Origin: an uncultured Arcobacteraceae bacterium
GTDB lineage: Bacteria; Campylobacterota; Campylobacteria; Campylobacterales; Arcobacteraceae
NCBI GenBank assembly: GCA_964022095.1
Contig: CAXHZO010000005.1
Location: 32,001 to 96,000, forward strand
Direction of reading: 5' to 3'
DNA: 64,000 nt
Part shown: piece by piece, positions 41,428 through 59,192 of the stretch
Numbering within the stretch: the first letter of the stretch is position 1
Layout: each line of letters begins with the position of its first letter
Made by a program: the position numbers and the translations under genes
The notes under the pieces: model-generated
What the model was told of the DNA's origin: nothing
Seen by the model: the letters and a program-made list of their open reading frames with translations, nothing else
Database searches by the model: none

Positions 41428-41438
41428 ATATTCTCCTT

Positions 41439-42261: not shown

Positions 42262-42293
42262 ATCTTAGTAGAATTTAATCGTATTATTATCGC
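42262..42293 (-). promoter_or_regulatory. GCGAT-box promoter of SDR-leuB
   Basis: Minus strand GCGAT-AATAAT-ACGAT-TAAATTCTAC-TAAGAT. Confidence 0.75.
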
Positions 42294-42300
42294 AGTTTAT

Positions 42301-43059
42301 TTAAAACAGTTCTATTTTATATCCTGAGTTATTTTGATTTACTATTAAGTCTTTATGTATTTTACTTCTAAGTCTAAATAAAACAGACCTAAAAGCAGCA
42401 TATCCAGCTGGTTCATCTTGCCAAATTGCATACTCCATTTGTTCTTGGGATACAAATTGCCCAGCACTTCTACAAAGTAAATCAATAATCTTTTTCTCTT
42501 TAGAAGTTAGTTTTATAGGTTCATCTCCATAATATAAAACTTCTACTTCTTTATCATAAAGATAACCATATTTAAGTTGTATTGTTCTATGATTTTGTTC
42601 TTTATTTAAAGATAATTGATGCTCTAAAGTTTTGTTTATATTTTCAACAGCATCTAGTTTTTTAATTTTTTCATTATCTTCTTTTGCTTTACTAAGAGCC
42701 ACTTCAATAGCAGCATGTAAGCTTTGTTTTTTATATGGTTTGATTATATATCCATATGCTAAAGTTTGAGAAGCTTCTTTTATAGTTTTTATTTCTGAAT
42801 TTGCAGTTAGAAAAACCACAGGTACCTCAGGAATTGAGTTTTTTAACTCTTTTGCAAGCTCAATTCCAGTAGTTGGTCCTTTTAGGTAAATATCCATCAA
42901 AATTAAGTCAGGTTTAGCACCTTTTTCTAATAAAGCTATAGTTTTACATCTATTTGGAGCAACACCACAAACTTTATATCCTAATTCATGTAGTGTTTCT
43001 TTTAGATTTAGTGCAATTATTGATTCATCTTCAACAATTAAAATTTCAATTTTGCTCAT
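42301..43059 (-). CDS. response regulator, receiver plus OmpR/PhoB-type winged-helix DNA-binding domain
   Basis: IVEDE, LMDIYL (phosphoacceptor Asp), LTA, KP; C-terminal IKLTSKEKKIIDLL...IW...LFRLRSKI...GYKI. Confidence 0.92.
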   Translation of the reverse strand: MSKIEILIVEDESIIALNLKETLHELGYKVCGVAPNRCKTIALLEKGAKPDLILMDIYLKGPTTGIELAKELKNSIPEVPVVFLTANSEIKTIKEASQTLAYGYIIKPYKKQSLHAAIEVALSKAKEDNEKIKKLDAVENINKTLEHQLSLNKEQNHRTIQLKYGYLYDKEVEVLYYGDEPIKLTSKEKKIIDLLCRSAGQFVSQEQMEYAIWQDEPAGYAAFRSVLFRLRSKIHKDLIVNQNNSGYKIELF

Positions 43060-43061
43060 TA

Positions 43062-44357
43062 TTATTCTCCCTCATCCTTAGAAAAAATTATATTACACTC
43101 TAAACCATTATTATTCTTAAACTCTATAGTTCCATCTAGTTGATCTTCAATAATTGAGTGAATAAGTTGCATTCCAATTGAATCACTTTTATATAGCGAG
43201 TCAATGTCATCTAATCCATCTCCATTATCACGAATTTTTACGTGGATCTGTTCATCTACTTTTTTCATATGAATACATAATAAATTATCTCTATCTTCTT
43301 TAAATGCATATTTTAAAGCATTTACACAAAGTTCATGTAGAACCATTCCTATTTGTATACATCTATTTGTAGAAAAACTCAAATTATCAATGTGTACATC
43401 TACATTTAATGTTGTGTTTTGTGAAATATATAACTCTTTTATATCATCAACAAGTCTTTTTATATAATTTTTAAGATTTATATATGCTAGGTTTTCACCT
43501 AAATATAAAAACTCATGAACTAAAGCCATAGTATGAATTCTACTTCTACTTTGTTGTAAGATATAAATCATATCTTTATCTTTTGTTCGTCGCTCTTGCA
43601 TATTTAGTAGTGATGATATTATTTCCATATTGTTTTTTACTCTATGATGAATCTCTTTTAGTAATATGTCTTTTTCTTCAACTGACTTTTGTAATTCTTG
43701 ATTCATTTTAGTGATTTTTGTTCTGTATTCTTGTCTTTGTGTCATATCTCTTGAAAAAGCACAAATATATTCATTTCCATTATGTGTAAAACCATGACCT
43801 GAAACTTCCACAGGAAAAATTGTTCCATCCTTTCTAATTTGTGTAGTTTCTAATCTCCAATTTTTATGATGGTAGATATTGTACATACACTCTTTTGCAG
43901 TCTCCCTATCAAAATTTGGGTCCATATCTTCTAAATACATATGATTTAAAAACTCATCTTTACTTCTTCCTATCATCTTACAAGCAGCTTCATTTACATA
44001 AATGAATTTTGCATCTAATGTAAACCAGTATATAGCATCAATAGAGTTGTTCAATGCAAACTCATAAGGAACAAGCCTTTCTTTATCTTTATCTTTTAAC
44101 TCTTTGTATGAACCCTCAATTCTTGAAACAACTTTTTGCATATGATTTAACATGATAAATAAAATTATTCCAGTTACTATTAAAAATATAATTCCAAAAG
44201 TGAAAGGCCCTTCTTGGCTTAGTGAATGATACTTTGAAAACTCACTTACAAGTCTATCAATAAACAAAATACCAACAGCTCCTATTAGTATATATGTTAA
44301 TGAAAACTTTGTTGGTATGGATTTATTATTTAAAATATAGTTCTTAACTCTTCCCAT
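43062..44357 (-). CDS. membrane PAS-domain sensor histidine kinase, HisKA_2 family
   Basis: Two TMs, PAS (YVNEAACKMIG, RKDGTIFPVEV), EIHHRVKNN H-box, ELCVNALKYAF, DNGDG, G box; ATG at 44357 preferred over GTG at 44411. Confidence 0.92.
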   Translation of the reverse strand: MGRVKNYILNNKSIPTKFSLTYILIGAVGILFIDRLVSEFSKYHSLSQEGPFTFGIIFLIVTGIILFIMLNHMQKVVSRIEGSYKELKDKDKERLVPYEFALNNSIDAIYWFTLDAKFIYVNEAACKMIGRSKDEFLNHMYLEDMDPNFDRETAKECMYNIYHHKNWRLETTQIRKDGTIFPVEVSGHGFTHNGNEYICAFSRDMTQRQEYRTKITKMNQELQKSVEEKDILLKEIHHRVKNNMEIISSLLNMQERRTKDKDMIYILQQSRSRIHTMALVHEFLYLGENLAYINLKNYIKRLVDDIKELYISQNTTLNVDVHIDNLSFSTNRCIQIGMVLHELCVNALKYAFKEDRDNLLCIHMKKVDEQIHVKIRDNGDGLDDIDSLYKSDSIGMQLIHSIIEDQLDGTIEFKNNNGLECNIIFSKDEGE

Positions 44358-44419
44358 TTTACTGCTCTTATTATAGATTTGAAAAATTATATCATAAATA
44401 AAAATATTCACTAATAACT

Positions 44420-44451
44420 GCGATAATTTTGCGATTTTTTTCCATTAAGAT
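44420..44451 (+). promoter_or_regulatory. GCGAT-box promoter of dmpKLMNOP
   Basis: GCGAT-AATTTT-GCGAT-TTTTTTCCAT-TAAGAT. Confidence 0.8.
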
Positions 44452-44493
44452 TCAAATTGAATTAAAAATTCATAATTGAAAAAGGTAGGTGTT

Positions 44494-44742
44494 ATGGCTA
44501 ATGAATCACCGTTTGAAAGAAAATATGTACATATTACTGATGTTAAATCAAACGATTTAGTTGAGTTTGATTTCTCTATAGGTGATCCATGTATGTATGT
44601 TGAACTTGCATTGCCGAAAAAGCAATTTGATGAGTTTTGTAAAAGAAATGCAGTTAAGCATTTAACAAGAGATCAAGAAATTGATGTGGAAAACGACAAG
44701 CATAAGTGGCAGTATGGTGTTGTTGGAACACTAAGTAAATAA
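44494..44742 (+). CDS. dmpK: phenol hydroxylase assembly subunit P0
   Basis: VEFDFSIGDP..YVEL.LP...F.EFC; first gene of the cluster; ATG at 44494. Confidence 0.92.
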   Translation: MANESPFERKYVHITDVKSNDLVEFDFSIGDPCMYVELALPKKQFDEFCKRNAVKHLTRDQEIDVENDKHKWQYGVVGTLSK

Positions 44743-44755
44743 AGGAGTTGAAAAT

Positions 44756-45751
44756 ATGTCTTTAGATATAAAAAGTATAGATATTAAGCCAAAAAGAGAA
44801 ACTTTTGGACACGTGGAAAGAAGAATTGGTGAAGGTAAGATGGCTTCAAGATATGAAGAGGCAACATTTGATATTCAGCCAGTTGCAAACTTTCATTATA
44901 GACCTTATGCAAATCCAGAGTTTGAGTTATATGATCAAAATAAAACTAGCATTAAAATGGAAGACTGGTATAAGTTTTTAGACCCAAGACAATACCACTA
45001 TGCTTCATATGTAACAGCAAGAGCAAAACAACAAGAAGTTGCAGAACAAAACTTTGTTTTTGTAGAAAAAAGAAATATGTTAGATGTAATGCCAGGAGAT
45101 ATAAAACAAGAAATCTTGAATTATGTTTTACCACTTAGACACTATGAGTGGGGAGCAAATATGAATAACCTTCAATTATGTTCAGAAGGATATGGTGCAG
45201 CTATTACAAATGCTTATATGTTCCATGCAGAAGATAGATTAGGTAATGCTCAATATCTTACAAGAATTGGATTATTACTTAGTGAAAATGAACCTGCTGT
45301 TTTAGATAATGCAAAAGATAAATGGTTAAATGATGAAGCATGGCAGCCACTTAGAAAAGCAATGGAAGATAGCTTTGTTTTACAAGATTGGTTTGAGCTT
45401 CATATAGCGCAAAATGTGATTTTCGATGGTTTTATTCATCCTTTAGTATTTGATAAGTACGAGCAAGAACTAAACCAAAGAGGTGGAACTGCTCAAACTA
45501 TGATGACAGAGTTTATCACATCTTGGAATGATGAATCTGCTAGATGGATTGATATGACAGTTAAAGTAGCAGCTTTAGAACGTGATGAAAATAAAGAGTT
45601 ATTAAATCAATGGTGTAAAAAGTATATTGATATTGCAAGTAATGCAGCCCTAGCAATTGCTAAAAATATAGTTAATAATCCAGAAGAAACAGTTAATAAC
45701 ATACAAGAGCAATTAGTGGCAAGATTAAATAAAAATGGTTTAAACCTATAG
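44756..45751 (+). CDS. dmpL: phenol hydroxylase beta subunit P1
   Basis: ASRYEEAT.DIQP..NFHYRP, DPRQY.Y, PLRH..WGANMNN, DWFEL. Confidence 0.94.
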   Translation: MSLDIKSIDIKPKRETFGHVERRIGEGKMASRYEEATFDIQPVANFHYRPYANPEFELYDQNKTSIKMEDWYKFLDPRQYHYASYVTARAKQQEVAEQNFVFVEKRNMLDVMPGDIKQEILNYVLPLRHYEWGANMNNLQLCSEGYGAAITNAYMFHAEDRLGNAQYLTRIGLLLSENEPAVLDNAKDKWLNDEAWQPLRKAMEDSFVLQDWFELHIAQNVIFDGFIHPLVFDKYEQELNQRGGTAQTMMTEFITSWNDESARWIDMTVKVAALERDENKELLNQWCKKYIDIASNAALAIAKNIVNNPEETVNNIQEQLVARLNKNGLNL

Positions 45752-45759
45752 GAGAAAGA

Positions 45760-46029
45760 ATGTCAAAGGTATTTTTAGCACTTCAAGCAGTAGATGAAAC
45801 AAGAGCTATTATTGAAGCTATACAAGAAGATAATGAAAATGTTGAGGTTGAACCACAGCCTGCCATGGTAAAAATCTCAGCTGAGAAAAAAATGGTAATA
45901 AATGCTCAAACTGTATCTGACAAATTAGGTAGAGATTGGGATCCACAAGAGTTACAGTTAGTTTTAATTTCACTAGCTGGAAATGTTGATGAAGATTATG
46001 ACCACTTTACAATTTATTGGGAAAATTAG
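45760..46029 (+). CDS. dmpM: phenol hydroxylase regulatory subunit P2 (MmoB/DmpM)
   Basis: R.IIEAI.EDN, QPAMVKI, LISLAGNVDED. Confidence 0.95.
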   Translation: MSKVFLALQAVDETRAIIEAIQEDNENVEVEPQPAMVKISAEKKMVINAQTVSDKLGRDWDPQELQLVLISLAGNVDEDYDHFTIYWEN

Positions 46030-46040
46030 GAGAAAATATT

Positions 46041-47561
46041 ATGACTATGAGTACACAAAAAAGAAAAAAACGTCTAAATATGAAAGACAAATATAAGTAT
46101 ATGACAAGACTTGGTTGGGAAACTACATATCAAGATATGGATGATGTTTTCCCTGAAGATAAATTTGAGGGTATAAAAATTCATGATTGGGAAGCTTGGG
46201 AAGATCCATTTAGAATGACAATGGATGCTTATTGGAAATACCAAGGTGAAAAAGATAAGAAACTATATGCAATTATTGATGCTTTTGCTCAAAATAATGG
46301 ACAAAAAAATATTTCAGATGCAAGATATGTATCCGCATTAAAACTGTTTTTAACAGGTGTTTCACCTTTAGAATATCAAGCACATAGAGGTTTTGCAAAT
46401 ATTGCAAGAGCTTTTAGAGGTGATGGTCCAAGAGTTGCATGTCAAATGCAAGCTATTGATGAGTTAAGACATGTTCAAACACAAATTCATACTTTAAGCC
46501 ATTATAACAAATACTTTAATGGTTTTTCAGAGTGGGCACATTGGCATGATAATGTATGGTACTTATCTGTTCCTAAATCATTCTTTGATGATGCAAGAGC
46601 AGCAGGTCCTTTTGAGTTTATTATTGCTATTGGATTCTCATTTGAGTATGTATTAACTAATCTATTATTTGTACCGTTTATGAGTGGTGCAGCTTATAAT
46701 GGAGATATGGCAACAGTTACATTTGGATTCTCAGCTCAAAGTGATGAGGCAAGACATATGACTTTAGGTTTACAAGCTATCAAGTTCTTATTAGAGCAAG
46801 ACCCTGCAAATGTTCCTATTGTTCAAAAGTGGATTGATAAGTGGACTTGGAGAGGTTATAAAGTTTTAGGACTAGTATCTGCAATGATGGATTATATGTT
46901 ACCTGATTCACCACAGTCTTGGAAAGAAGCTTGGGAATTATATTTTGAGCAAAATACAGTTGCACTATTTAAAGATTTAGAAAGATATGGAATTACAGTT
47001 CCAGATTGTGCAGCAACAATAAAAGCTGAAAAAGAGCATATTTCTCATCAAGTTTGGATGACACTATATACTCATAATGCAGCAGCACCTTTCCATACGT
47101 GGATTCCAGATGAGAAAAAAATGGATTGGTTAAGCGAAAAGTATCCTGAAACTTTCGATAAATATTACAGACCAGTTTATGAACACTGGAATAAGTTAGA
47201 AAAAGAAGGTACGAGATACTACTCTGAAATGCTTCCTCAGTTATGTCAAACTTGTCAGTTACCAATGTTAGCAACAGAAGTTGAAAAAGGTGAACCAACT
47301 CAAATTGCACATAGACATACTATGTACAATAATGAGAGATTCCATTTCTGTTCAGATCATTGTCAAGATATTTTTGAAAATGAACCTGAAAAGTATATTC
47401 AATCTTGGTTACCAGTTCATCAAATCTTCCAAGGAAACTGTGGAGGTGCTACACTTCCAGAAGTACTTAAATGGTATAAGGTTGAATTTGGACAAGATAA
47501 TCTTGATTATGTAGGTTCTCAGGATCAAAAAATGTGGAAAGAATGGAAGGGAGAAGCATAA
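46041..47561 (+). CDS. dmpN: phenol hydroxylase di-iron alpha subunit P3
   Basis: IDELRH and QSDEARH di-iron motifs, WEDPFR, YHS-like HFCSDHC; SD AGGAG before ATG 46041. Confidence 0.97.
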   Translation: MTMSTQKRKKRLNMKDKYKYMTRLGWETTYQDMDDVFPEDKFEGIKIHDWEAWEDPFRMTMDAYWKYQGEKDKKLYAIIDAFAQNNGQKNISDARYVSALKLFLTGVSPLEYQAHRGFANIARAFRGDGPRVACQMQAIDELRHVQTQIHTLSHYNKYFNGFSEWAHWHDNVWYLSVPKSFFDDARAAGPFEFIIAIGFSFEYVLTNLLFVPFMSGAAYNGDMATVTFGFSAQSDEARHMTLGLQAIKFLLEQDPANVPIVQKWIDKWTWRGYKVLGLVSAMMDYMLPDSPQSWKEAWELYFEQNTVALFKDLERYGITVPDCAATIKAEKEHISHQVWMTLYTHNAAAPFHTWIPDEKKMDWLSEKYPETFDKYYRPVYEHWNKLEKEGTRYYSEMLPQLCQTCQLPMLATEVEKGEPTQIAHRHTMYNNERFHFCSDHCQDIFENEPEKYIQSWLPVHQIFQGNCGGATLPEVLKWYKVEFGQDNLDYVGSQDQKMWKEWKGEA

Positions 47562-47923
47562 TGGCAATTGTAAGTAAAGGTGAATATCCAGTAATTATGA
47601 TGGATAGTGTAGATAAGTTTCATGGTAACCAATTAGTATATGTAGGTTGGGATAAACATAAGTTAATCAATTCAGCGATGGCTTTTCCTTTACCACCACA
47701 AATGCCTTTTAAGGCATTAGTGCATGAAGTAATGCCAGGTTGTTATAAAGATCATCCAGATTTTGAAAAAGTTGTATGGGATGATTCTGTTATTTGGAGA
47801 TTAAACGGTGAAGAGTTTACTCCTGATTTTGAAAAATCTCTTGAAGATAATGGAATTGATCATAAGTCATTAGTTAGATTTGAAACACCAAATCTAACAG
47901 GAATTAACGGAGTAGGAATGTGA
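47561..47923 (+). CDS. dmpO: phenol hydroxylase gamma subunit P4
   Basis: YVGWDKH, PP.MPF, HPDF, PDFEKSL.DNGI.HKS. Confidence 0.94.
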   Translation: MAIVSKGEYPVIMMDSVDKFHGNQLVYVGWDKHKLINSAMAFPLPPQMPFKALVHEVMPGCYKDHPDFEKVVWDDSVIWRLNGEEFTPDFEKSLEDNGIDHKSLVRFETPNLTGINGVGM

Positions 47924-48978
47924 GTTATCAAGTAGAAATAGAACCAACAGGAGATGTAGTAGAAGTTCAAGATGGTCAAACTATTCTTGATGCTGCATTA
48001 AGACAGGGGGTATATATTCCCCATGCGTGCTCTCATGGTTTATGTGGTACTTGTAAGGTAGAGATATTAGAAGGTGAAGTTGACTATGGTGCAGCTTCTC
48101 CTTTTGCCCTTATGGATATGGAAAAAGATGAGGGAAAATGTCTTGCTTGTACTGCTACACCAATGGAAGATTGTGCTATAGAAGCTGATGTTGATGAAGA
48201 TCCAGATGCTAAATCAATACCTGTAAAAGATTTTATGGGAACAGTTGTTGAGGTGAAGGATTTAACACCTAGAATAAAAGGTATTTTTATAGAATTAGAT
48301 GAAGAGATTGAGTTTCAAGCAGGTCAATATGTACAATATCATGTACCAGGATTTGAAGAACCAAGAGCATTTTCTTTATGTAACTCTTCAAATGATAAAA
48401 AAATTGTAGAGTTAAATATTTCTTTAGTTCCAGATGGAGAAGCAACTCCATGGATTCATAAAAATGTAAAAGTTGGTGCAAGAAGAAAAGTATCAGGACC
48501 TTATGGAAGATTTTTTGTAAGAGAATCTGCTCAAAAACCTATGATTTTCTTTGCAGGTGGTTCAGGTCTTTCAAGTCCAAAATCTATGATTTTAGAGCAG
48601 CTTGAAAATGGAAGTAAACAAGAAATAACACTTTTTCATGGTGCTAGAAATGAAGAAGAGTTATATTATGCAGATTTATTTAGAGACTTAGAGCAAAAGC
48701 ATGAGAACTTTACATATGTACCTGTTTTATCCGATGAAGATACTCCTTCTTGGGAAGGGAAAAAAGGTTTTGTAAATGATGCTGCAAAAGAAGTTTTTGA
48801 AAATGACTTCTCTGGAAAAAAAGCATATCTTTGTGGACCTCCACCTATGATAGATGCTTGTATTACAACATTAATGAGAGGAAGACTTTACGAAAAAGAT
48901 ATTTATACTGAAAAGTTCTTCTCAAAAGCTGACTTAAATGCTGAAAATCAGCGTTCCCCTTTATTTAAATCAATTTAA
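47920..48978 (+). CDS. dmpP: phenol hydroxylase reductase P5 (2Fe-2S/FAD/NADH)
   Basis: CSHGLCGTC...LAC, RAFS, AGGSGLS, YLCGPP, RSPLFK. Confidence 0.96.
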   Translation: MSYQVEIEPTGDVVEVQDGQTILDAALRQGVYIPHACSHGLCGTCKVEILEGEVDYGAASPFALMDMEKDEGKCLACTATPMEDCAIEADVDEDPDAKSIPVKDFMGTVVEVKDLTPRIKGIFIELDEEIEFQAGQYVQYHVPGFEEPRAFSLCNSSNDKKIVELNISLVPDGEATPWIHKNVKVGARRKVSGPYGRFFVRESAQKPMIFFAGGSGLSSPKSMILEQLENGSKQEITLFHGARNEEELYYADLFRDLEQKHENFTYVPVLSDEDTPSWEGKKGFVNDAAKEVFENDFSGKKAYLCGPPPMIDACITTLMRGRLYEKDIYTEKFFSKADLNAENQRSPLFKSI

Positions 48979-48999
48979 AATTTTTAAAAAGTAGTTTTT

Positions 49000-49031
49000 G
49001 CGATTTTTCTGCGAAACTATTTCTGTAAAGT
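49000..49031 (+). promoter_or_regulatory. GCGAT-box internal promoter of the meta-cleavage genes
   Basis: GCGAT-TTTTCT-GCGAA-ACTATTTCTG-TAAAGT. Confidence 0.72.
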
Positions 49032-49076
49032 TAAAAAGTCAAAAAGCTATGACTTTTAAATAAAAAAGGGGATGTT

Positions 49077-49397
49077 TTGAAATATGAAATCTTCGTAAAA
49101 GATAAAGACAAAACTAAAACTTGTCTTGAATCTAAACATCTTATGGATGGTTTATATGTATATGATAATCTAGTTCCAAAGGGTTGTCATAATGGTGCCT
49201 GTGGACTTTGTAAGGTTAAAGTTCATAGAGGAGACTACAAAAAATGCAAAATGAATAGAAAACACATCTCATGTGAAGAAGAGAGTGCAGATATTCTTTT
49301 AGCTTGTAAGACATTTCCTAGAAGTGATATGGAAATAGAATTTATACGTAGAGACTTATCTAAAGAAAAATCCCAAGTTTATGTACTTGGTAATTAA
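49077..49397 (+). CDS. dmpQ: XylT/DmpQ-type 2Fe-2S ferredoxin (C23O reactivation)
   Basis: GCHNGACGLCKV, MNRKH, LAC..PRSD; directly before C23O. Confidence 0.88.
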   Translation: MKYEIFVKDKDKTKTCLESKHLMDGLYVYDNLVPKGCHNGACGLCKVKVHRGDYKKCKMNRKHISCEEESADILLACKTFPRSDMEIEFIRRDLSKEKSQVYVLGN

Positions 49398-49414
49398 ATA
49401 ATTAGGAGAAAGTA

Positions 49415-50362: not shown

Positions 50363-50384
50363 AAGAAAAATTTAGGAATTTAAA

Positions 50385-50813
50385 ATGTTGACAAAAACAT
50401 CAAGAGATTTGACAAGTCAAACAGCTTTAAAGCTTTGTGAGTTATCAATTGAAAAGGCTAATGAATTAAATATAAAAATAAATGTAAGTGTTACAGATTC
50501 AAAAGGGATTGAACTTGCATTTATAAGAATGGATGATTCTTTTATTCATTCAAGTCAAATAGCAAAAGATAAGGCTTATACAAGTGCAAGTTTTGGTTTT
50601 AACTCAGATATATGGACTCAAGTTTTCAAAAGTGAACCTCATTTAGAACAAGGTTTTTCTAATAGAGATAGATTAATACCTTTTGGTGGAGGGCTTACTA
50701 TTTTTGAAAATGAAGAAAAAGTTGGAGCCATTGGTGTTTCAGGCGGAACTGAACAAGAAGATATTATTTGCGCGAAGTATGCAATAGAAAGGATAGGATT
50801 AAATAATGAATAA
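50385..50813 (+). CDS. GlcG/HbpS-family haem-binding protein
   Basis: AFIRMD, DKAYTSASFG, GAIGVSGG..QED. Confidence 0.88.
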   Translation: MLTKTSRDLTSQTALKLCELSIEKANELNIKINVSVTDSKGIELAFIRMDDSFIHSSQIAKDKAYTSASFGFNSDIWTQVFKSEPHLEQGFSNRDRLIPFGGGLTIFENEEKVGAIGVSGGTEQEDIICAKYAIERIGLNNE

Positions 50814-52263
50814 AGTACAACACTATATTAACGGACAATTTTTAGATTCATCTTGTGGGGAGTTTTTTGAGAATATCAACCCTATGAATGGTCAAGTATT
50901 ATCTCAAGTAGCCCTAGGACGAGAAGATGAAGTGAATGCAGCAGTTGCAGCAGCTAAAGCAGCTCTTACTGGTGAATGGGGTCAAATGAAATTAAATGAC
51001 AGAATTGCAATGATGTATGAAATTGCTGAGGAAATTGATAGAAGATTTGATGATTTCTTAGAAGCTGAATGTTTAGATACAGGTAAACCTTATTCTATTG
51101 CAAGACATATTGATATCCCAAGAGGTGCTGCAAATTTTAAAGTATTTGCAGACACTATGAAATCTGTTGCAGATGAAGCTTATAGAATGGATACACCTGA
51201 TGGAAAAGTAGCTATGAATTATTCTATGAGAAAACCTAAGGGGGTTATTGGTGTAATTTCTCCATGGAATTTACCATTACTTTTAATGACTTGGAAAGTT
51301 GGTCCTGCAATGGCTTGTGGAAATACAGTAGTTGTGAAACCATCACAAGTTACACCAACAACAACATCTTTACTTGGTGAAGTAATGTCAAAAGTTGGTG
51401 TTCCTTCTGGTGCATATAATGTAGTACAAGGAAAAGGTTCAATTACTGGAAATTTATTAACAGCTCATAAAGATGTAGATGCTTTAACTTTTACAGGTGA
51501 GACAAAAACAGGTGAGATGATTATGAAAGCTTGTTCTCATGGTGTTAGAGATGTATCCTTAGAGCTTGGTGGAAAAAACCCAGCTATTGTTTTTGCTGAT
51601 TGTGATATGGATAAGGCAATTGCTGAGACTACAAGATCGTGTTTTGCTAACTCTGGTCAAGTTTGTTTAGGAACTGAAAGAGTTTATGTTCAAAGAGAAA
51701 TTTTTGATGAATTTGTATCAAAACTAAAAGAGTCAGCTTTAAAACTAAAACTTGGAATTCATAATGATGAATCAGTTGATATGGGGCCAGTAGTTAGTGC
51801 TGCTCATAGAGATAAAGTATTAGAGTTTTATGACATAGCTAAAAAAGAGGGTGCAAATGTAATTTTAGGTGGAGGTGCTCCTAAAATGGAAGGTGATTTA
51901 GCAAATGGATTCTTTGTTGAACCTACTATTTGGACTGGTCTTCCTGAAGATGCAACAGTTGTAAAACAAGAAGTATTTGGACCTTGTTGTCATATTGCAC
52001 CTTTTGATAGTGAAGAAGAAGTTATTAAAATGGCTAATGATACAGATTATGGACTAGCATCTACAATATTTACAGAAAATTTAGATAAGGCTCATAGAGT
52101 AGCTTCACAAATTGACTCAGGAATTGTATGGATTAATTCATGGTTCTTAAGAGATTTAAGAACACCATTTGGTGGAATGAAAGGTTCTGGTATCGGAAGA
52201 GAGGGTGGTCACCACTCATTAGAGTTCTATACTGAACTTAAAAACGTATGTATAAAAATGTAA
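50806..52263 (+). CDS. dmpC: 2-hydroxymuconic semialdehyde dehydrogenase
   Basis: DIPRGAANF, PWNLPLLLMTWK, ELGGKN, GQVCLGTER, WFLRDLRTPFGG. Confidence 0.96.
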   Translation: MNKVQHYINGQFLDSSCGEFFENINPMNGQVLSQVALGREDEVNAAVAAAKAALTGEWGQMKLNDRIAMMYEIAEEIDRRFDDFLEAECLDTGKPYSIARHIDIPRGAANFKVFADTMKSVADEAYRMDTPDGKVAMNYSMRKPKGVIGVISPWNLPLLLMTWKVGPAMACGNTVVVKPSQVTPTTTSLLGEVMSKVGVPSGAYNVVQGKGSITGNLLTAHKDVDALTFTGETKTGEMIMKACSHGVRDVSLELGGKNPAIVFADCDMDKAIAETTRSCFANSGQVCLGTERVYVQREIFDEFVSKLKESALKLKLGIHNDESVDMGPVVSAAHRDKVLEFYDIAKKEGANVILGGGAPKMEGDLANGFFVEPTIWTGLPEDATVVKQEVFGPCCHIAPFDSEEEVIKMANDTDYGLASTIFTENLDKAHRVASQIDSGIVWINSWFLRDLRTPFGGMKGSGIGREGGHHSLEFYTELKNVCIKM

Positions 52264-52272
52264 GGGTGTAAT

Positions 52273-53067
52273 ATGTCAATGACTCAAGAAAAAATTGAAA
52301 AGTATGGAAATGAATTGTATGAGGCTTTAAAAGGAAACTATACAATTGAGCCTATTTCAAATAGAGAACCTGATTCTACAATTGAAGATGCTTATGCTAT
52401 TCAACATCACTTTTTAAAAAGAAGAATGGAAGATGATGGAAGTAAAATTATTGGTAAAAAAATTGGTGTTACATCAAAGGTTGTTATGGACATGTTAGGT
52501 GTTCATCAACCTGATTTTGGTTACCTTTTATCAGATATGATTTACTCTGATGGTGATGTAATAAATGTAACAAGTGGAATGATTCAGCCAAAAGCAGAGG
52601 GTGAAATAGCCTTTGTTTTAAAAGAAGATTTATGTGGACCAGGAGTTACAGCTGCTGATGTTATTAAAGCAACAAAATTTGTAATGCCTTGTTTTGAAAT
52701 AGTTGATTCAAGAATCAAAGATTGGAAAATTAAAATCCAAGATACAGTTGCTGATAACGCTTCATGTGGATATATGGTATTTGGAGGACAAAGTGTATCT
52801 CCTTTAGATGTTGATTTAACAACTTGTGGAATAACTTTAGAGAGAAATGGTGAGTTATTACATACAGGAGCAGGTGCAGCAGCTCTTGGTAGTCCTGTAA
52901 ATGCAGTAGTTTGGCTTGCAAATAAACTTGGAGAGTTTGGTGTATCGCTAAAAGCAGGTGAGGTTATTTTATCAGGGGCTTTATGTGCAATGGTAGATAT
53001 AAAACCAGGTGATAATATGACTGCAAGTATTGGTGGCGTTGGTTCTGCCTCAATCAGATTTGAATAA
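52273..53067 (+). CDS. dmpE: 2-oxopent-4-enoate hydratase
   Basis: GKKIGVTS, QPDFG, PKAEGE, DTVADNAS. Confidence 0.93.
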   Translation: MSMTQEKIEKYGNELYEALKGNYTIEPISNREPDSTIEDAYAIQHHFLKRRMEDDGSKIIGKKIGVTSKVVMDMLGVHQPDFGYLLSDMIYSDGDVINVTSGMIQPKAEGEIAFVLKEDLCGPGVTAADVIKATKFVMPCFEIVDSRIKDWKIKIQDTVADNASCGYMVFGGQSVSPLDVDLTTCGITLERNGELLHTGAGAAALGSPVNAVVWLANKLGEFGVSLKAGEVILSGALCAMVDIKPGDNMTASIGGVGSASIRFE

Positions 53068-53079
53068 AAGGTAAATACA

Positions 53080-53964
53080 ATGGAAAAAATAAATTGTGCA
53101 TTAATTGGGTCTGGAAATATTGGAACAGACCTAATGTATAAACTAAAAAGAAGTGAAATATTAAATCCTTTATGGATGGTTGGTATTGACCCTGAGTCTG
53201 ATGGTTTATTAAGAGCTAAAGAAGATGGTATGAAAACAACAGCCGAAGGTGTTGATGGATTACTTCCTTTTATTAAAGAAGATGGTGTAAAGATTGCATT
53301 TGATGCAACATCAGCTTATGTTCATGGTGAAAATAATAAAAAGTTAGCGGAACTTGGAGTTCAAGTTATTGATTTAACTCCTGCTGCAATAGGACCATTT
53401 TGTGTGCCATCAGTTAATATGGAAGAGCTACTTGCTCAAAATACTCAAAATGTAAATATGGTTACTTGTGGTGGGCAAGCTACTATTCCTATGATTGCCG
53501 CTGTATCAAAAGTTCAGGAAGTTGAATATGCAGAAATTGTAGCAACAGCAGCTTCTAAGTCAGCAGGTCCAGGAACTCGTGCTAATATTGATGAGTTTAC
53601 TGAAACTACAAAACTTGGAATAGAGCAAGTAGGTGGTGCTAAAAAAGGTAAAGCAATTATTATTTTAAATCCTGCAGAACCACCTTTAATGATGAGAGAT
53701 ACAATTCATTGTTTAACAAGTGAAAAACCTGATGAAGAAGCTATTACTAAATCAATCCATGAAATGGTTGAAACTATGCAAGAGTTTATTCCAGGGTATG
53801 TGTTAAAAAATGGACCAGTTTTTGATGGTAATAAAATCTCTATTTGGTTAGAAATTGAAGGTTTGGGGGATTATTTGCCTAAGTATGCAGGTAACCTAGA
53901 CATTATTACAGCAGCAGCAACAAATATTGCAGAACAAATGGCTAAAAAGATTAAAGGAGCATAA
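53080..53964 (+). CDS. dmpF: acylating acetaldehyde dehydrogenase
   Basis: [39 protein letters not shown]. Confidence 0.96.
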
Positions 53965-53965
53965 G

Positions 53966-54994
53966 ATGGATTTACAAGGTAAAAAAATAAAAATTCATGA
54001 TATGTCTTTAAGAGATGGAATGCACTCAATTAGACATCAATTTTCACTTGAAGAGATGACAAATATGTCAACAGCAATGGATAAAGCAGGTGTTCCTTTT
54101 ATTGAAGTTACTCATGGAGATGGACTTGGTGGTTCATCACTTAACTATGGATGGGGAAGACATACTGATGAAGAGTGGTTAGATGCAGTAGTGCCAAATA
54201 TGACACAAGCTAAAATCTCAGCTCTTTTACTTCCAGGAATCGGTATTGTAAAAGATTTAGAAAAAGCTGTTGATCATGGTATTTCTATGGTTAGAGTAGC
54301 AACTCATTGTACGGAAGCTGATTGTTCAGCCCAACATATAAAAGCTGCTAAATCAATGGGACTTGATACAGTTGGATTTTTAATGATGGCTCATATGGTT
54401 GATGAAAAAAGATTAGTTGAGGAAGCTTCTAAAATGGTTTCTTATGGAGCTACTACTATTTATGCAACTGATTCAGCTGGCTACTTACTTCCTGATATGG
54501 TAAGTTCTAGAATTAAAGCATTAAAAGCAGAGTTTGGTGATGAAATTGAACTTGGTTTCCATGGGCACAATAATTTATCAATGGGTGTTGCAAACTCTTT
54601 AGCTGCTATTGAAGCAGGTGCTACACGAATTGATGCTTCACTTGCAGGTTTTGGAGCAGGTTCTGGAAACACTGCAACTGAAGTATTAGTTGCTGTTTGT
54701 AATAGAATGGGTGTTGATACAGGTGTTAATCTTGAAGCTATTGAAGATGCAGCTGAGGATATTGCACTTCCTATTATGGGTAAACCTACAAGAATCTCAA
54801 GGGATTCTATTACTTTAGGTTATGCAGGTGTTTATTCATCATTTTTACTATTTGCTAGACGAGCAGAAGAAAAGTATGGAATAGATGCAAGATCTTTACT
54901 TGTTGAATTAGGTAGAAGAGGAATGATTGGTGGTCAAGAGGATATGATTGATGATTGTGCTATGGAATTAGCTAAACAAAAAGGATTATTATAA
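53966..54994 (+). CDS. dmpG: 4-hydroxy-2-oxovalerate aldolase
   Basis: [45 protein letters not shown] at 53966 after SD AGGAG. Confidence 0.96.
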
Positions 54995-55782
54995 TGGCAT
55001 TAGATAAAGCAACAATAGAAAAACTTGCAAAGCATTGTGAAGATGCAGAATTGCAAGCTTATGAGATTACAAAAATTACTGATGATTACCCAGAAATGAC
55101 ATATGAAGATGCATATGATATTCAATGGACTGCAAGGGCTGCTAAGGAAGCAAGAGGTCATAAAATAGTTGGTATGAAAATGGGGCTTACTTCACAGGCT
55201 AAAATGAAACAAATGGGAGTTCCAAATCCTTGTTATGGATATCTTGCTGATTACTTTGCATATGGTGATGGGGCAGAAATACCATATGACGAATTAATTC
55301 ATCCAAAAGTTGAAGCTGAAATTGCTTTTGTATTAAAAGATGATTTAAGTGGTCCGGGATGTCATATAGGTGATGTATTAGCTGCTACTGATTTTGTAAT
55401 GCCTGCTGTTGAGATTATTGATTCAAGATATAAGGATTTTAAATTTGATTTAAAATCTGTAATTGCTGATAACTCTTCATCTTCTAGATATGTAAGTGGT
55501 GGTATGGCAAAAAAAGCTAATGAAGTTGATTTAAAAACTTTAGGTGTCGTAATGGAAATAAATGGTGAAGTTGTACAACTTGGAGCAGGAGCTGCAGTTC
55601 TTGGTCATCCAGCAACTGCTATTGCAATGCTTGCAAATATGATGAGTGAACGAGGTGAGGTTTTAAAGGCTGGATCTTATATCTTAAGTGGAGCAATTAC
55701 AGCTGCAACTACTGTTAATAAAGGTGATAATGTAACTGTTAAGTTTCAAGATTTAGGAACTTTATCATTTAAATTTGTATAG
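54994..55782 (+). CDS. dmpH: 4-oxalocrotonate decarboxylase
   Basis: KMGLTS.AKMKQMGV, IHPKVEAE, FKFDLKSVIADN. Confidence 0.94.
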   Translation: MALDKATIEKLAKHCEDAELQAYEITKITDDYPEMTYEDAYDIQWTARAAKEARGHKIVGMKMGLTSQAKMKQMGVPNPCYGYLADYFAYGDGAEIPYDELIHPKVEAEIAFVLKDDLSGPGCHIGDVLAATDFVMPAVEIIDSRYKDFKFDLKSVIADNSSSSRYVSGGMAKKANEVDLKTLGVVMEINGEVVQLGAGAAVLGHPATAIAMLANMMSERGEVLKAGSYILSGAITAATTVNKGDNVTVKFQDLGTLSFKFV

Positions 55783-55790
55783 AAAATAAG

Positions 55791-55937
55791 AGCAACTTAT
55801 TGCTTTTAAAAAATGGGATATTTTAAGGACAACTTGTTGTCCCTTTAGGGTTTGCTTCTTTAAAGATGGCTTTGCCATCTTGTTAAAAGAAGTTAAATAT
55901 GTAAGGTCCCTTAAAAAATGGGACATTTTTTAAGGAG
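55791..55937 (+). repeat. intercistronic cluster of hairpins with a duplicated ~24-bp unit
   Basis: TTAAAAAATGGGA(T/C)ATTTT..AAGGA at 55806-55829 and 55911-55936; palindromes AGCAA/TTGCT, GGACAA/TTGTCC, AAGATGGC/GCCATCTT. Confidence 0.75.
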
Positions 55938-55943
55938 TATATT

Positions 55944-56135
55944 ATGCCAATAGCAACTATAAATATAATCGAAGGCAGATCTGATGAGCAAAAAGAGAAG
56001 CTTATAGAAAAAGTAACTCAAGCAATTCACGAAGCTATAGATGCACCAAAACAAAATGTTAGAGTGATTTTAAATGAAATGCCAAAACAACATTTTGGAA
56101 TAGGTGGAGAAAGTGTAAAAAAGATGGGGCGATAA
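55944..56135 (+). CDS. dmpI: 4-oxalocrotonate tautomerase
   Basis: Catalytic Pro1, EGRS.EQK, VRV, HFGIGG. Confidence 0.95.
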   Translation: MPIATINIIEGRSDEQKEKLIEKVTQAIHEAIDAPKQNVRVILNEMPKQHFGIGGESVKKMGR

Positions 56136-56136
56136 A

Positions 56137-57144
56137 GTGTTAAAATTAAGTGTATTAGACCAATCTCCAATTCATGATGGAAAAGAAGCAAAGCAAGGCT
56201 TATTTGATACTATTGAATTAGCAAAATCTTGTGAAGACTTAGGTTATTATAGATATTTATTAGCAGAACATCATGATACACCTGGCTATGCTTCTTGTGC
56301 CCCTGAGATTATGGTTAGTGCAGTTGCTTCAAATGCTTCAAAAATTAGAGTTGGTAGTGGTGGAGTTATGCTAAATCACTATAGCTCTTTTAAAGTAGCA
56401 GAGACTTTTAATACACTTAATGCTTTATACGATAATAGGATTGATTTAGGTGTAGGAAGAGCTAGTGGCGGAAGTTTTTTAGCTACTAGAGCTTTGCATT
56501 CAAATCAAAGTGATTATTCAAAAAAAGTTTATGAAACAATAAATTATTTAGATAAAACAGTTCCTTTAAATTCTTCATTTAGTGGATTGACTTTATCCCC
56601 AGTTCAAGAAAATAGTACTCCTGTGTATTTACTAGGTTCTAGTAATTCAAGTTCTTCTTTAGCAGGAGTTTTAGGTGCAGGTTTTATCTTAGCACTATTT
56701 ATAGGAACACATGAAAGAAATTCTTCAATAATACAAGAGTATAAAAAAACATTTAATAAAAGTCATAATTTTAAAAAGCCAAAAGCTAGTATTGCAGTTG
56801 CTTGTATTGTTGCAAAGGATAAAGAAGAAGCAAGATATATAGCAAGTACACATACTTATTGGAAGTTACAAGCTTTCAGACAGCCTACAAGGGATGATTT
56901 ACAAAGCCCACAAGCAGTTCAAGAACTAATAAAAGATTTAAGCCTTGAAGATAGACAATATTATGAAGAAACAATGAATACCATGATATTGGGTAATGCA
57001 AAAGAGTGTAAAGAAGAAATAGAGAAATTAGCTTTAGAATATGAAGTTGATGAGGTAATTATTGTGAATGTGACTTATTCTTTTGAGCATAGAAAAAGAT
57101 CATATGAACTTTTAGCAAAAGAGTTTGATTTAAATAAGGAGTAA
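56137..57144 (+). CDS. luciferase-like (LLM) flavin-dependent oxidoreductase
   Basis: LSVLDQSP, AEHH, RVGSGGVML.HYS..KVAE, RIDLGVGRA. Confidence 0.9.
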   Translation: MLKLSVLDQSPIHDGKEAKQGLFDTIELAKSCEDLGYYRYLLAEHHDTPGYASCAPEIMVSAVASNASKIRVGSGGVMLNHYSSFKVAETFNTLNALYDNRIDLGVGRASGGSFLATRALHSNQSDYSKKVYETINYLDKTVPLNSSFSGLTLSPVQENSTPVYLLGSSNSSSSLAGVLGAGFILALFIGTHERNSSIIQEYKKTFNKSHNFKKPKASIAVACIVAKDKEEARYIASTHTYWKLQAFRQPTRDDLQSPQAVQELIKDLSLEDRQYYEETMNTMILGNAKECKEEIEKLALEYEVDEVIIVNVTYSFEHRKRSYELLAKEFDLNKE

Positions 57145-57146
57145 AA

Positions 57147-57965
57147 ATGTCAAATCCAGAAATAGCAAATAGTATTAATACGGGTAATTATAATACTAAC
57201 TATCATGATTTAGGTGAGGGTGAAGTAGTTTTATTTATCCATGGTTCAGGACCAGGGGTTTCAGCCTTTGCAAACTGGAGATTAACAATGCCCCAGCTTG
57301 CAAAAAACTTTAGAGTAATAGCTCCTGATATGGTAGGCTTTGGTTATAGTGATAGACCTAATGATATTACTTATAGTATGGATGTATGGGTAGAGCAAGC
57401 TATTAATTTAATGGATGCTTTAAAAATAGAAGAATTTAATATCGTTGGTAACTCTTTTGGTGGAGGCTTGGCTTTATGTTTAGCTATAAAATATCCAAAT
57501 AGAGTGAATAAAATGGTATTAATGGGTGCAATGGGTGTTGATTTTGAAATAACAGCTGGACTTGATCAAGCATGGGGATATACTCCAAGTATAGAAAACA
57601 TGAAAGCTTTATTAGATACATTTGCATATAGTAGAGAACTAGTAACAGATGATTTAGCAAAAATGAGATATGAAGCTAGTATTAGACCTGGATTTCAAGA
57701 ATCATTTAGTTCAATGTTTCCCGAACCAAGACAAAATAGTGTAAAATCAATGGCAAGTGATGAAAAAGAAATAGCTTCTATTGATAAAGATGTTTTAATT
57801 ATCCATGGTAGAGATGATAAGGTGATTCCTTTTGAAAACTCAATTAGATTGCATAATCTAATAGAAAAGTCACAATTACATGGTTTTGGACAATGTGGAC
57901 ATTGGTCTCAAATAGAACATAAGGATAGATTTAATAAACTACTTGAAGATTTCTTTTTAGAATAG
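57147..57965 (+). CDS. dmpD: 2-hydroxymuconic semialdehyde hydrolase
   Basis: HGSGPGV.A.ANW, GNSFGG, HGRDD, CGHW.QIEH. Confidence 0.93.
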   Translation: MSNPEIANSINTGNYNTNYHDLGEGEVVLFIHGSGPGVSAFANWRLTMPQLAKNFRVIAPDMVGFGYSDRPNDITYSMDVWVEQAINLMDALKIEEFNIVGNSFGGGLALCLAIKYPNRVNKMVLMGAMGVDFEITAGLDQAWGYTPSIENMKALLDTFAYSRELVTDDLAKMRYEASIRPGFQESFSSMFPEPRQNSVKSMASDEKEIASIDKDVLIIHGRDDKVIPFENSIRLHNLIEKSQLHGFGQCGHWSQIEHKDRFNKLLEDFFLE

Positions 57966-57973
57966 GAGTAGAT

Positions 57974-58912
57974 ATGAACTTTTTAATTTTAGGTACAGGT
58001 GGAATAGGCGCATTTTACGGAGCAAGATTATTAAGTTCATCAAATAAAGTTACATTTGTCGCAAGGAGTTTGCACTTAGAAGCTATAAGAAAAAATGGCT
58101 TACAAGTGCAACATCCTGATTTTTCCTTCTCTCAAAAAGTAGATGTATCACAACTACAAGATATAGACTTCACTTCTTTAAATATTGATGTAATAATTCT
58201 AACTACAAAATCAAATACAACTAAAATAATAGCAAAAGAGCTTTCTTTTAAACTAGATACATTAAAAGACAAACCATATATTTTATCTTTACAAAATGGT
58301 GTTGAGAATGAGAAATTTTTATGTGAATATTTTCAAAAAGATAAAATAATAGGTGGACTAACTAGAAAAATAGGTGCTCATATTATAAAACCCTCTTTTA
58401 TAGAAGCCACAGGTAAAGTAGAAACTCTAATAGGTGCAATTTCCCAAACTAAAGAAAACACAGCTTTTTTAAAGAAGTTAAATAAAAGTATAAATGAAGC
58501 TGGTATTTTATGTGAAGTTGTTGATGATATAAATAAAGAGCTTTGGAAAAAACTTATTATAAACAATGGAGTAAATGCTATTTGTGCTTTACTCAAAATT
58601 AAAACTGGTGTTTTAATGAATAATGAAAAACTTTCATCTTTAGTTTATAGTCTAATGAAAGAGACTCAAAGTGCTGCAAAAGCTTGTAGTATAGAAATTA
58701 CTAACAATGAACTAAGTCAAATGTATGAGTTAATTAAAAATTTTGACTCAATTAAACCCTCAATGCTAGTTGATAGAGAGTTTAAAAGAGAATTAGAAAT
58801 AGATGAAATCTGTAATGTAGTAATAAACTATAATAAAATGCAAAATATAGATAGCCCTTATACTAAATCAATCTCTTATTTACTTGATTTTGTGTATAAA
58901 AATGAAAAATAA
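57974..58912 (+). CDS. ketopantoate reductase (PanE/ApbA)-family protein, copy 2
   Basis: GTGGIG, LQNGV, WKKLIINNGVNAICALL, KPSMLVD, ELEID. Confidence 0.88.
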   Translation: MNFLILGTGGIGAFYGARLLSSSNKVTFVARSLHLEAIRKNGLQVQHPDFSFSQKVDVSQLQDIDFTSLNIDVIILTTKSNTTKIIAKELSFKLDTLKDKPYILSLQNGVENEKFLCEYFQKDKIIGGLTRKIGAHIIKPSFIEATGKVETLIGAISQTKENTAFLKKLNKSINEAGILCEVVDDINKELWKKLIINNGVNAICALLKIKTGVLMNNEKLSSLVYSLMKETQSAAKACSIEITNNELSQMYELIKNFDSIKPSMLVDREFKRELEIDEICNVVINYNKMQNIDSPYTKSISYLLDFVYKNEK

Positions 58913-58920
58913 AACTATTT

Positions 58921-58952
58921 GCGATTAATCTGCGATAAGTTTTTATTATTAT
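58921..58952 (+). promoter_or_regulatory. GCGAT-box promoter upstream of an ORF-free structured segment
   Basis: GCGAT-TAATCT-GCGAT-AAGTTTTTAT-TATTAT. Confidence 0.72.
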
Positions 58953-58958
58953 TACCTT

Positions 58959-59146
58959 TGAAATAGGTGCAAGTGATATATTTATTTTTGAAGTTGTAGT
59001 ACCTATTATGTTTTTTGCTTTTAAACTTATAAATGCTTTCTTTTTATCACTTACAACTTCAAAGCGACTTATATGAAGTTTCTCCTTTCATAAAAAAATG
59101 ATTTAGACATAAATACGGCATTTTATATGCCGTATGCCCTTATTTT
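58959..59146 (+). ncRNA. candidate sRNA (or long structured leader) with anti-SD loop
   Basis: Own motif promoter, no credible ORF, several inverted repeats, loop GTTTCTCCT, 3' hairpin ATACGGCAT/ATGCCGTAT; ends approximate. Confidence 0.5.
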
Positions 59147-59160
59147 AACTTATAAAAAGT

Positions 59161-59192
59161 GCGATAATTTTGCGATTTAATTTAATTAAAAT
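59161..59192 (+). promoter_or_regulatory. GCGAT-box promoter of porin gene
   Basis: GCGAT-AATTTT-GCGAT-TTAATTTAAT-TAAAAT; first 16 bp identical to the dmpK site. Confidence 0.8.

Follow-up and report, generated by a model that had tools for sequence, protein, structure and literature searches.

A pho-box-like direct repeat at the operon promoters of an Arcobacteraceae phenol-degradation island, and the response-regulator family that probably reads it

Which factor could switch on, together, the separate operons of an aromatic-catabolism island? The question is raised by a 64-kb stretch of an Arcobacteraceae genome (the window, that is, the whole stretch analysed), in which five promoters carry the same element: two direct repeats of the pentamer GCGAW (box 1 and box 2), separated by 6 bp and followed, exactly 10 bp past box 2, by a -10 hexamer of the form TAnnnT. 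The genes of a response regulator and a sensor histidine kinase lie between the first two of these promoters. We consider it probable that the adjacent response regulator reads GCGAW-N6-GCGAW as its DNA site, or, to be more precise, that the Arcobacteraceae-specific family of this regulator does so, and that the element resembles a pho box.

The five elements are listed below with their scores against a weight matrix built from the sites of relatives.

42262–42293, minus strand: P(SDR), GCGAT-N6-ACGAT-N10-TAAGAT (GCGAT-AATAAT-ACGAT), 28.8 bits
44420–44451, plus strand: P(dmpK), GCGAT-N6-GCGAT-N10-TAAGAT, 37.9 bits
49000–49031, plus strand: P(fdx-C23O), GCGAT-N6-GCGAA-N10-TAAAGT (GCGAT-TTTTCT-GCGAA), 34.2 bits
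58921–58952, plus strand: box promoter facing a stretch free of open reading frames (ORFs), GCGAT-N6-GCGAT-N10-TATTAT, 34.5 bits
59161–59192, plus strand: P(porin), GCGAT-N6-GCGAT-N10-TAAAAT, 36.6 bits

P(SDR) is located 7 nt past the regulator stop codon and 28 nt ahead of the SDR start codon, P(dmpK) stands back to back with the promoter of the kinase-regulator operon and is shared with it, the fourth site begins 9 nt past the stop codon of an ApbA-like gene, and P(porin) precedes the porin start codon by 75 nt. A preliminary description of this DNA had reported five such elements, and on reading the sequence their coordinates and strands are confirmed, as are the 11-bp period of the repeats, the 10 bp to the hexamer and the intergenic position in the orientation of the downstream unit (5/5 sites in each case). 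The consensus given there, GCGAT-N6-GCGAT-N10-TAnnnT, is exact at three of the five promoters (44420–44451, 58921–58952 and 59161–59192, all on the plus strand), and the other two differ from it by one base in box 2. The exact pattern is not found in any of 100 dinucleotide-preserving shuffles (expected 0.00). With one mismatch or fewer in the box pair, the 64 kb hold exactly five sites against 0.21 ± 0.46 expected, and 0/100 shuffles gave five. The next best position of the window after the five sites (28.8–37.9 bits) scores 3.7 bits, and 300 first-order Markov windows reach a maximum of 19.3 bits, none of them 20 or more. A chance origin of the five sites is excluded. The dinucleotide CG is depleted throughout the window (304 CG, observed/expected 0.23) and GC is over-represented (1.39), in accordance with the earlier remark that CG is scarce; that the housekeeping region has no box pair, which had been judged by eye, holds for 1–38 kb by pattern search and weight matrix, housekeeping genes occupying positions 1–36 kb. 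Among the 60 TTGACA-type promoter matches listed of 86, none coincides with a box promoter.

We note that one further pair of GCGAT pentamers, absent from the preliminary description, lies at the island edge (39737–39751, minus strand), 9 nt beyond the point where the first ApbA-like gene stops. Its period is 10 bp, and no -10 stands at the right distance. A 10-bp-period pair is not found in the closest relatives, L001 and L003, and a single match in L002 is elsewhere in that locus. We set the pair aside as a relic or a chance occurrence.

Relatives come from one scan of genome contigs with the regulator protein, which yields 47 loci. Thirty-two of them (L001–L032) are from Arcobacteraceae or Campylobacterota, with 67–98% identity and with Arcobacter sp. 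YIC-310 as the closest (98%), and the other 15 (L033–L047) share the receiver domain only. The box pair, with one mismatch at most, occurs in nearly all of L001–L032 in two constant positions, immediately ahead of the kinase gene and facing away from it, and just past the regulator stop codon, in addition to copies further off. By weight matrix, 29/32 Arcobacteraceae loci carry one or more sites that reach 24 bits, and in the 15 unrelated loci (258 kb, 46 kb of them low in GC) no site reaches 10 bits. The window and L001–L032 together give 88 matches; removal of four that are coding or without a -10 (L002:13637, L009:14395, L016:978 and L031:1215) leaves 84 sites, of which 76 are unique. TAnnnT stands exactly 10 bp past box 2 in 64 of the 76, and the first in-frame start lies within 100 nt downstream in 71 of the 73 unique sites that have a downstream ORF (at least 60 aa). 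When the spacing is left free, same-strand GCGAW pairs in this set occur 71 times at 11 bp, and no other distance between 5 and 45 bp occurs more than three times. Positions outside the site selection are conserved as well, namely T at 0, T17, TTT at 20–22, T27 (0.85), A28 (0.96) and T32 (0.98). The flanks and the 6-bp spacer vary among relatives, and the boxes, their spacing and the -10 are kept. No conservation is seen for a third box 11 bp upstream or downstream of the pair. An inverted-repeat reading (GCGAA-TAA-TTCGC, 15 cases) was rejected, as it describes a minority variant of the direct repeat.

In these relatives the element also stands ahead of genes that are absent from the window, i.e., an Ldh-like gene, genes of Peripla_BP_6 and SBP_bac_3-like binding proteins, and a chemoreceptor gene. 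The last is a methyl-accepting chemotaxis protein gene behind a box promoter in L009 (10772–12655, minus strand), which suggests for that genome a joint regulation of chemotaxis and aromatic catabolism.

A gene-anchored count avoids circularity because it starts from genes and not from motifs. Homologues were collected by tblastn and the 220 nt upstream of each were scored by the weight matrix, scores from 20 bits upwards being counted as a site; because loci from one contig overlap, a few internal genes enter twice into the following numbers of loci with an upstream site.

dmpK: 20/20
ferredoxin: 12/12
SDR: 18/18
leuB-type gene: 2/10
dmpL: 0/20
dmpN: 0/22
catechol 2,3-dioxygenase (C23O): 0/16
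ALDH: 0/16
kinase (same orientation): 0/29
regulator: 0/33
dmpI: 0/4
LLM: 0/5
hydrolase: 0/2

The element is therefore restricted to the first gene of an operon. In box 2, 13/13 ferredoxin promoters have GCGAA and 12/19 SDR promoters have ACGA (window included in both counts), and since these forms are conserved by promoter class, the two one-base departures in the window are not noise. The leuB-type gene has a box promoter of its own in L005 (14441–15511) and L028 (1433–2524).

The kinase-regulator operon is transcribed away from P(dmpK), and its promoter is of another kind.

44387–44395, minus strand: extended -10 of the kinase-regulator operon, TGATATAAT on the minus strand

In the window, exactly 28 nt separate this -10 hexamer from box 1 of P(dmpK). 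At 28/28 kinase-proximal sites (26 distinct sequences) a TAnnnT stands on the opposite strand at the same distance from box 1, and a second system in L030 adds a 29th case of the geometry. The hexamer carries the TG extension (TGnTAnnnT) in 27 of 28 loci, and TG at -15/-14 is found in 3/76 box promoters. We read this as a self-sufficient kinase-regulator promoter next to target promoters that would be weak and dependent on an activator. The fixed back-to-back placement argues that a dimer bound at the shared boxes probably also feeds back on the synthesis of the regulator itself, which would amount to autoregulation. In three loci (L025 and L026, near 8600 on the minus strand in both; L030, 845–849) the kinase-proximal box pair and its -10 are kept though no gene faces the boxes, which fits a role at the kinase-regulator promoter.

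The units served by these promoters, and the two regulatory genes, are as follows; the gene calls made earlier around the boxes are borne out by Pfam.

40360–42233, minus strand: unit 1, an SDR oxidoreductase (41439–42233) and a leuB-type dehydrogenase (40360–41427)
42301–43059, minus strand: response regulator, 252 aa, with Response_reg and Trans_reg_C domains
43062–44357, minus strand: sensor histidine kinase with PAS, HisKA_2 and ATPase domains
44476–48978, plus strand: unit 2, the multicomponent phenol hydroxylase dmpKLMNOP
49077–58912, plus strand: unit 3, ferredoxin, catechol 2,3-dioxygenase and the meta-cleavage pathway, then a luciferase-like oxidoreductase, a hydrolase and an ApbA-like reductase
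58953–59160, plus strand: ORF-free segment behind the fourth box promoter
59268–60434, plus strand: unit 5, a porin of the OprD/Opr family (Pfam OprD, 37.6 bits)

Unit 2 matches Phenol_hyd_sub, Phenol_Hydrox (twice), MmoB_DmpM, Phenol_monoox, and Fer2 with FAD- and NAD-binding domains. The catechol 2,3-dioxygenase of unit 3 reaches 391 bits against TIGR03211 (cut-off 320), and the porin has 73.5 bits against the NCBIfam Opr family porin model, below its cut-off of 150. The leuB-type gene (minus strand), an Iso_dh family member, scores 500 bits with TIGR00169 leuB (cut-off 353), and with the SDR gene it belongs to the putative box regulon. No other transcription-factor domain is found by Pfam among the island ORFs of at least 70 aa, and a domain scan finds no second response regulator in 1–36 kb. 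The two ApbA-like genes were considered as direct repeats of the island, but they are 41% identical and therefore are paralogues and not a duplication scar.

The regulator is composed of a receiver (residues 1–110, with Asp56 as the phospho-acceptor), a long helix (111–155) and a winged helix (159–249) whose recognition helix spans 219–233. Pfam assigns Response_reg at 83 bits (cut-off 30.2) and Trans_reg_C at 37.4 bits (cut-off 26.2). In an alignment of 28 regulators, Glu10, Asp11, Asp56, Thr85 and Lys107 are invariant and the stretch from Trp213 to Ile239 is almost invariant. Mean pairwise identity is highest in the recognition helix and wing (0.89), followed by the whole winged helix (0.80), the receiver (0.78) and the linker helix (0.58); in the kinase it is 0.79 for the DHp region and 0.66 for the PAS region. 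An AlphaFold model of the regulator (pLDDT 85.6) folds residues 159–249 into a beta sheet, three helices and a beta hairpin, and the best Foldseek matches are KdpE-DNA, RpaA-DNA, DrrB, PrrA, MtrA and CosR-DNA (E = 5e-14 to 3e-12). Full-length matches of the OmpR/PhoB family, several of them bound to DNA, also include PmrA and PhoP. In place of a short linker, the model has one continuous helix over residues 111–155, with pLDDT 67–78 in its last third, and the receiver together with this helix resembles EutV (TM-score 0.53 when normalised to the length of the query and 0.68 to that of the target). In sequence, the receiver comes closest to those of PAS-GGDEF, ANTAR and PhyR proteins, in matches below the family cut-offs. 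The kinase has two hydrophobic helices (judged by eye) with a loop of about 14 residues, followed by PAS, HisKA_2 and ATPase domains. Its likely start is the ATG at 44357, the ORF being open to a GTG at 44411 (431–449 aa), and its nearest neighbours are PhyK and LOV kinases (NCBIfam, LOV-type entries in the PDB), all below family cut-offs. Judged by these likenesses, the regulator is not a textbook OmpR, with a PhyR/ANTAR-like receiver and a HisKA_2/PhyK-like kinase as its partner.

We note that this is an unusual mix of two-component modules, a PhyR/ANTAR-type receiver, a EutV-like helix of 45 residues, an OmpR-type winged helix and a HisKA_2 kinase in one system.

A pho-box-like class II site is what the layout of the element suggests: the direct repeats recur at 11 bp, they replace the -35, their distance to the -10 is fixed, and they lie upstream of the unit served and co-oriented with it. 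A course of events can be proposed on this basis. The membrane-anchored PAS/HisKA_2 kinase would sense a phenolic or another aromatic signal and phosphorylate the regulator at Asp56, for which the canonical residues are present. Two regulator subunits would then occupy the two direct repeats in the -35 position, 10 bp upstream of a sigma-70-type -10, and recruit RNA polymerase to promoters that are presumably weak, having neither a -35 nor a TG extension. Five units would be switched on in this manner, i.e., the SDR and leuB-type genes, dmpKLMNOP, the operon of ferredoxin, C23O and meta pathway, the ORF-free transcript, and the OprD-like porin gene, and the dimer on the dmpK boxes may also act back on the kinase-regulator operon.

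Several observations weigh against this assignment or narrow it. The related loci were picked via the regulator, so that the counts in them measure the motif given the regulator and not the regulator given the motif. In L013, L021 and L032 the regulator has the same recognition helix and no box is within reach (L013 stops at a contig end); a search by eye finds no variant boxes near the regulator in these three. The fetched loci do not reach the region of the ORF-free site, and the conservation counts cover the sites other than this and the porin site; in L019, whose porin (37% identity) is the only closer homologue in the loci, no boxes precede the porin gene. The -35 is poorly conserved in Campylobacterota promoters generally (PMC7755780), and for this reason the lack of a -35 argues less strongly for activation here than in E. 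coli. The modelled 45-residue helix leaves about three residues ahead of the winged helix, an unusual tether for head-to-tail binding. Compared by sequence with solved structures, the winged helix has no significant match, the best stretches listed all starting in the receiver and none being confined to the winged helix. Finally, the recognition helix is invariant across coexisting paralogues, each flanked by GCGAW boxes, so that the adjacent regulator is not singled out as the only binder. The preliminary description had called the element the operator of the adjacent regulator and taken it to define the whole regulon, but in relatives it also precedes genes that the window does not contain. 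The OmpR/PhoB-type geometry, the Trans_reg_C domain and the boxes in 29/32 regulator loci sustain the operator part of this claim, and the adjacent copy is not necessarily the sole reader: because coexisting paralogues share both recognition helix and box, the box identifies a regulator family and not one protein.

The same boxes could serve as a repressor operator, at which this regulator blocks polymerase at -35 until a signal removes it. We hold this to be unlikely. The site does overlap the position of polymerase, and Campylobacterota promoters can work without a recognisable -35 (PMC7755780), but many of the -10 hexamers are imperfect (e.g., TAAGAT and TAAAGT) and the TG extension is scarce in box promoters (3/76) compared with the presumably constitutive kinase promoters (27/28). 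Moreover, a rigid 10 bp to the -10 is needed by activators that contact sigma and not by steric repression, and PhoB and PceP activate from the equivalent position. A factor encoded elsewhere, either an alternative sigma factor with the boxes as its -35 element or a distant global regulator, is very improbable as the reader. The doubled pentamer with its 11-bp period (71 pairs versus at most three) fits a tandem dimer and not a sigma -35, the -10 is of the sigma-70 type, and the island encodes no further regulator domain. The three loci with a regulator and no boxes would suit such a factor, but the 28-nt coupling (28/28) and the boxes in 29/32 regulator loci tie the site to the gene pair.

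That the repeats have no regulatory role, being due to chance, to a mobile or REP-like repeat or to a recombination scar of the island, has a negligible probability in our judgement. Shuffles and simulations exclude chance. In relatives the flanks and the 6-bp spacer vary around boxes, spacing and -10 that stay, and sites occur only ahead of the first genes of operons and co-oriented with them; these patterns count for more than the AT-rich, repetitive nature of the DNA and the extra, differently spaced pair at the island edge (39737–39751), which speak for such repeats.

Assignment to a regulator family, as preferred here, raises the matter of how wide that family is. It comprises 158 matches at E ≤ 0.001 among 239 candidates, and the 120 of the 158 that were listed are all at least 69% identical over residues 130–252. 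The matches that carry an organism name are confined to Aliarcobacter, Poseidonibacter, Halarcobacter and Arcobacter, and public sources give them generic names only. In a tree of the family two clades separate, one linked to dmpK and the other to Ldh (support 98/98), and the box core is common to both. At least six genomes hold two or three regulator paralogues, often on one contig, and in L009 and L030 a further regulator copy lies inside the locus. In L021 and L032 the regulator gene stands last in a longer operon, behind ORFs of 700 and 453 aa and the kinase gene (in L032 an ORF of 558 aa comes before these), and boxes are absent from the vicinity; one doubtful site is present in L021 ahead of a gene for a hydroxylase subunit.

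These features allow a wider picture, which we offer tentatively and think less probable than not. The two-component family (PAS/HisKA_2 kinase; PhyR-like receiver, long helix and OmpR-type winged helix) might be private to Arcobacteraceae, with two or three paralogues of divergent sensors in one aromatic-catabolism supercluster that share the reading helix and the operator, so that many sensors use one operator. Aromatic signals might thus be merged on shared promoters, with expression graded by weak boxes (GCGAA for ferredoxin, ACGA for SDR) and a fixed feedback module, and with a regulon reaching the porin, a chemoreceptor, uptake systems and a small RNA.

How does this system compare with those already characterised? 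Regulators of the DmpR/XylR type in Pseudomonas are sigma-54-dependent activators of the NtrC family, and DmpR binds phenol itself. The dmp operons under DmpR control encode the enzymes seen here, a multicomponent phenol hydroxylase and then the meta pathway. Matches to the sigma-54 promoter TGGCAC-N5-TTGC with two mismatches or fewer number 37 in the window against 28.8 ± 5.3 expected, which is no enrichment over chance, and none of them lies in the five promoter gaps; Sigma54_activat is not detected among the 70 window ORFs scanned. Control of the DmpR/XylR type was rejected on these grounds, i.e., no Sigma54_activat domain, no -24/-12 elements in the promoter gaps, and -10 hexamers of the sigma-70 type. 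The systems TodS/TodT, StyS/StyR and TmoS/TmoT have outputs of the NarL/FixJ type and large hybrid kinases with double sensors. They share with the window the two-component control of aromatic catabolism and PAS as the likely effector site. The system described here is not of the TodST/StySR type, as its output is Trans_reg_C and its kinase has a single PAS domain with HisKA_2 and ATPase domains.

The pho box of Escherichia coli stands 10 bp from the -10. Its likeness to the present element lies in the 11-bp-period repeats that replace the -35, the fixed short distance to a sigma-70 -10 and the winged-helix reader; PhoB binds two 11-bp direct repeats (PMC2648988). Unlike PhoB, which reads CTGTCAT, the core here is GCGAW; the receiver is of the PhyR/ANTAR type with a 45-residue helix, the kinase is HisKA_2/PhyK-like with a PAS domain and not PhoR-like, and the output is aromatic catabolism. 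The proposed mechanism is a classical one, that of a pho-box-like class II site. What is unusual is the lineage of receiver and kinase, the long linker helix, the rigid bidirectional module, and the control of a dmp-type pathway by sigma-70 and a two-component system.

Within the phylum, the closest characterised analogues are PceS/PceP and SulS/SulR. PceP, an OmpR-type regulator of Sulfurospirillum, binds direct repeats that overlap the -35 at several units of its island, as seen by gel shift (PMC7755780). Like the system of the window, PceS/PceP (tetrachloroethene respiration) comes from the same phylum, has its OmpR-type regulator inside a catabolic or respiratory island with repeats over the -35, and shares one site between the regulator operon and a divergent unit; site variants are proposed there to grade expression. 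The repeat of PceP is CTATW-N17-CTATW, whereas here it is GCGAW-N6-GCGAW, for which binding is inferred from sequence, and PceS has a periplasmic domain and seven membrane helices where the kinase here has two (by eye); signal and pathway differ as well. An orthology with PceS/PceP was rejected, given the different boxes and the two versus seven membrane helices. SulR of Sulfurimonas (thiosulfate oxidation) binds two direct repeats at the promoters of neighbouring catabolic operons (PMC12936845). SulS/SulR is thus also an OmpR-family system of Campylobacterota with two direct repeats and neighbouring catabolic operons, but the SulR repeat is TTACA-like, as in EnvZ/OmpR, SulS senses in the periplasm, and the pathway differs. 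In Arcobacter sp. CAB the meta-pathway genes are induced by catechol and have the gene order of the window, with no regulator named in the accessible part of that study (PMC3656443). A literature search, with subscription journals and supplements outside its reach, found no work on a two-component regulator of Arcobacter phenol or meta-pathway genes or on a GCGAT direct repeat.

If the assignment is right, the element provides a testable regulatory code, defined by sequence, for phenol and catechol degradation in Arcobacteraceae, and dmp-type operons, the textbook case of sigma-54 and DmpR, can run on a pho-box-like two-component switch with sigma-70. With the 16-bp operator and its fixed -10 as a search pattern, genes responsive to aromatics could be predicted in genomes and metagenome bins of Arcobacteraceae, and reporters that respond to phenol could be constructed from the same elements. 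The combination of a HisKA_2 kinase, a PhyR-like receiver and a winged-helix output also bears on how two-component modules recombine.

The fourth box promoter faces the ORF-free segment, in which no ORF of at least 23 aa is found (58953–59160). A stretch of 193 nt without ORFs folds at -40 kcal/mol (z = -3.9), and a terminator-like hairpin occupies 59113–59135. Rfam gives no match to the segment up to E = 1. In a Rfam search of 38000–64000, a match to CRISPR-DR6 at 61673–61710 (24.6 bits, gathering score 39) was taken as chance. By blastn, 58953–59160 has no homologue in the 47 loci, which end 10 kb from the regulator, so that this is no evidence of absence. The segment may encode a structured, regulator-dependent small RNA of about 190 nt, or it may be a long porin leader with a second promoter, or a relic. 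The same tandem arrangement of two box promoters is present in L030. The porin leader (59200–59267) shares ATTGCGCG and AATTTCG elements with the box-free porin leader of L019 (18225–18290, minus strand), and these may constitute a second, independent control element.

Further observations concern other parts of the window. A 426-aa protein encoded downstream of the porin and of an EamA transporter (61415–62695, plus strand) belongs to no Pfam or NCBIfam family, and in a protein atlas it falls in unnamed clusters only. A second prephenate dehydratase gene is broken into pieces of 73 and 87 aa (39809–40030 and 40076–40339, plus strand), joined by eye, the 87-aa piece itself having no Pfam match; an intact chorismate mutase/prephenate dehydratase gene lies at 31284–32360. 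The gap between the decarboxylase gene and dmpI (55783–55945) is conserved in seven loci (e.g., L018, L019, L020 and L023). It contains two copies of AAAAAATGGGAyATTTT..TAAGGA and a perfect 12-bp palindrome (55909–55935), with the ribosome-binding site of dmpI in the right arm, and the inner stem GTCCC/GGGAC is replaced by CTCCC/GGGAG in L020. A role in translation or in mRNA processing is conceivable. The lowest GC content of the window (0.23–0.25) is found at the gene of a 925-aa protein (8076–10853, plus strand) with PLD-like nuclease, ResIII/helicase and DUF3427 domains, a region that may be another acquired segment.

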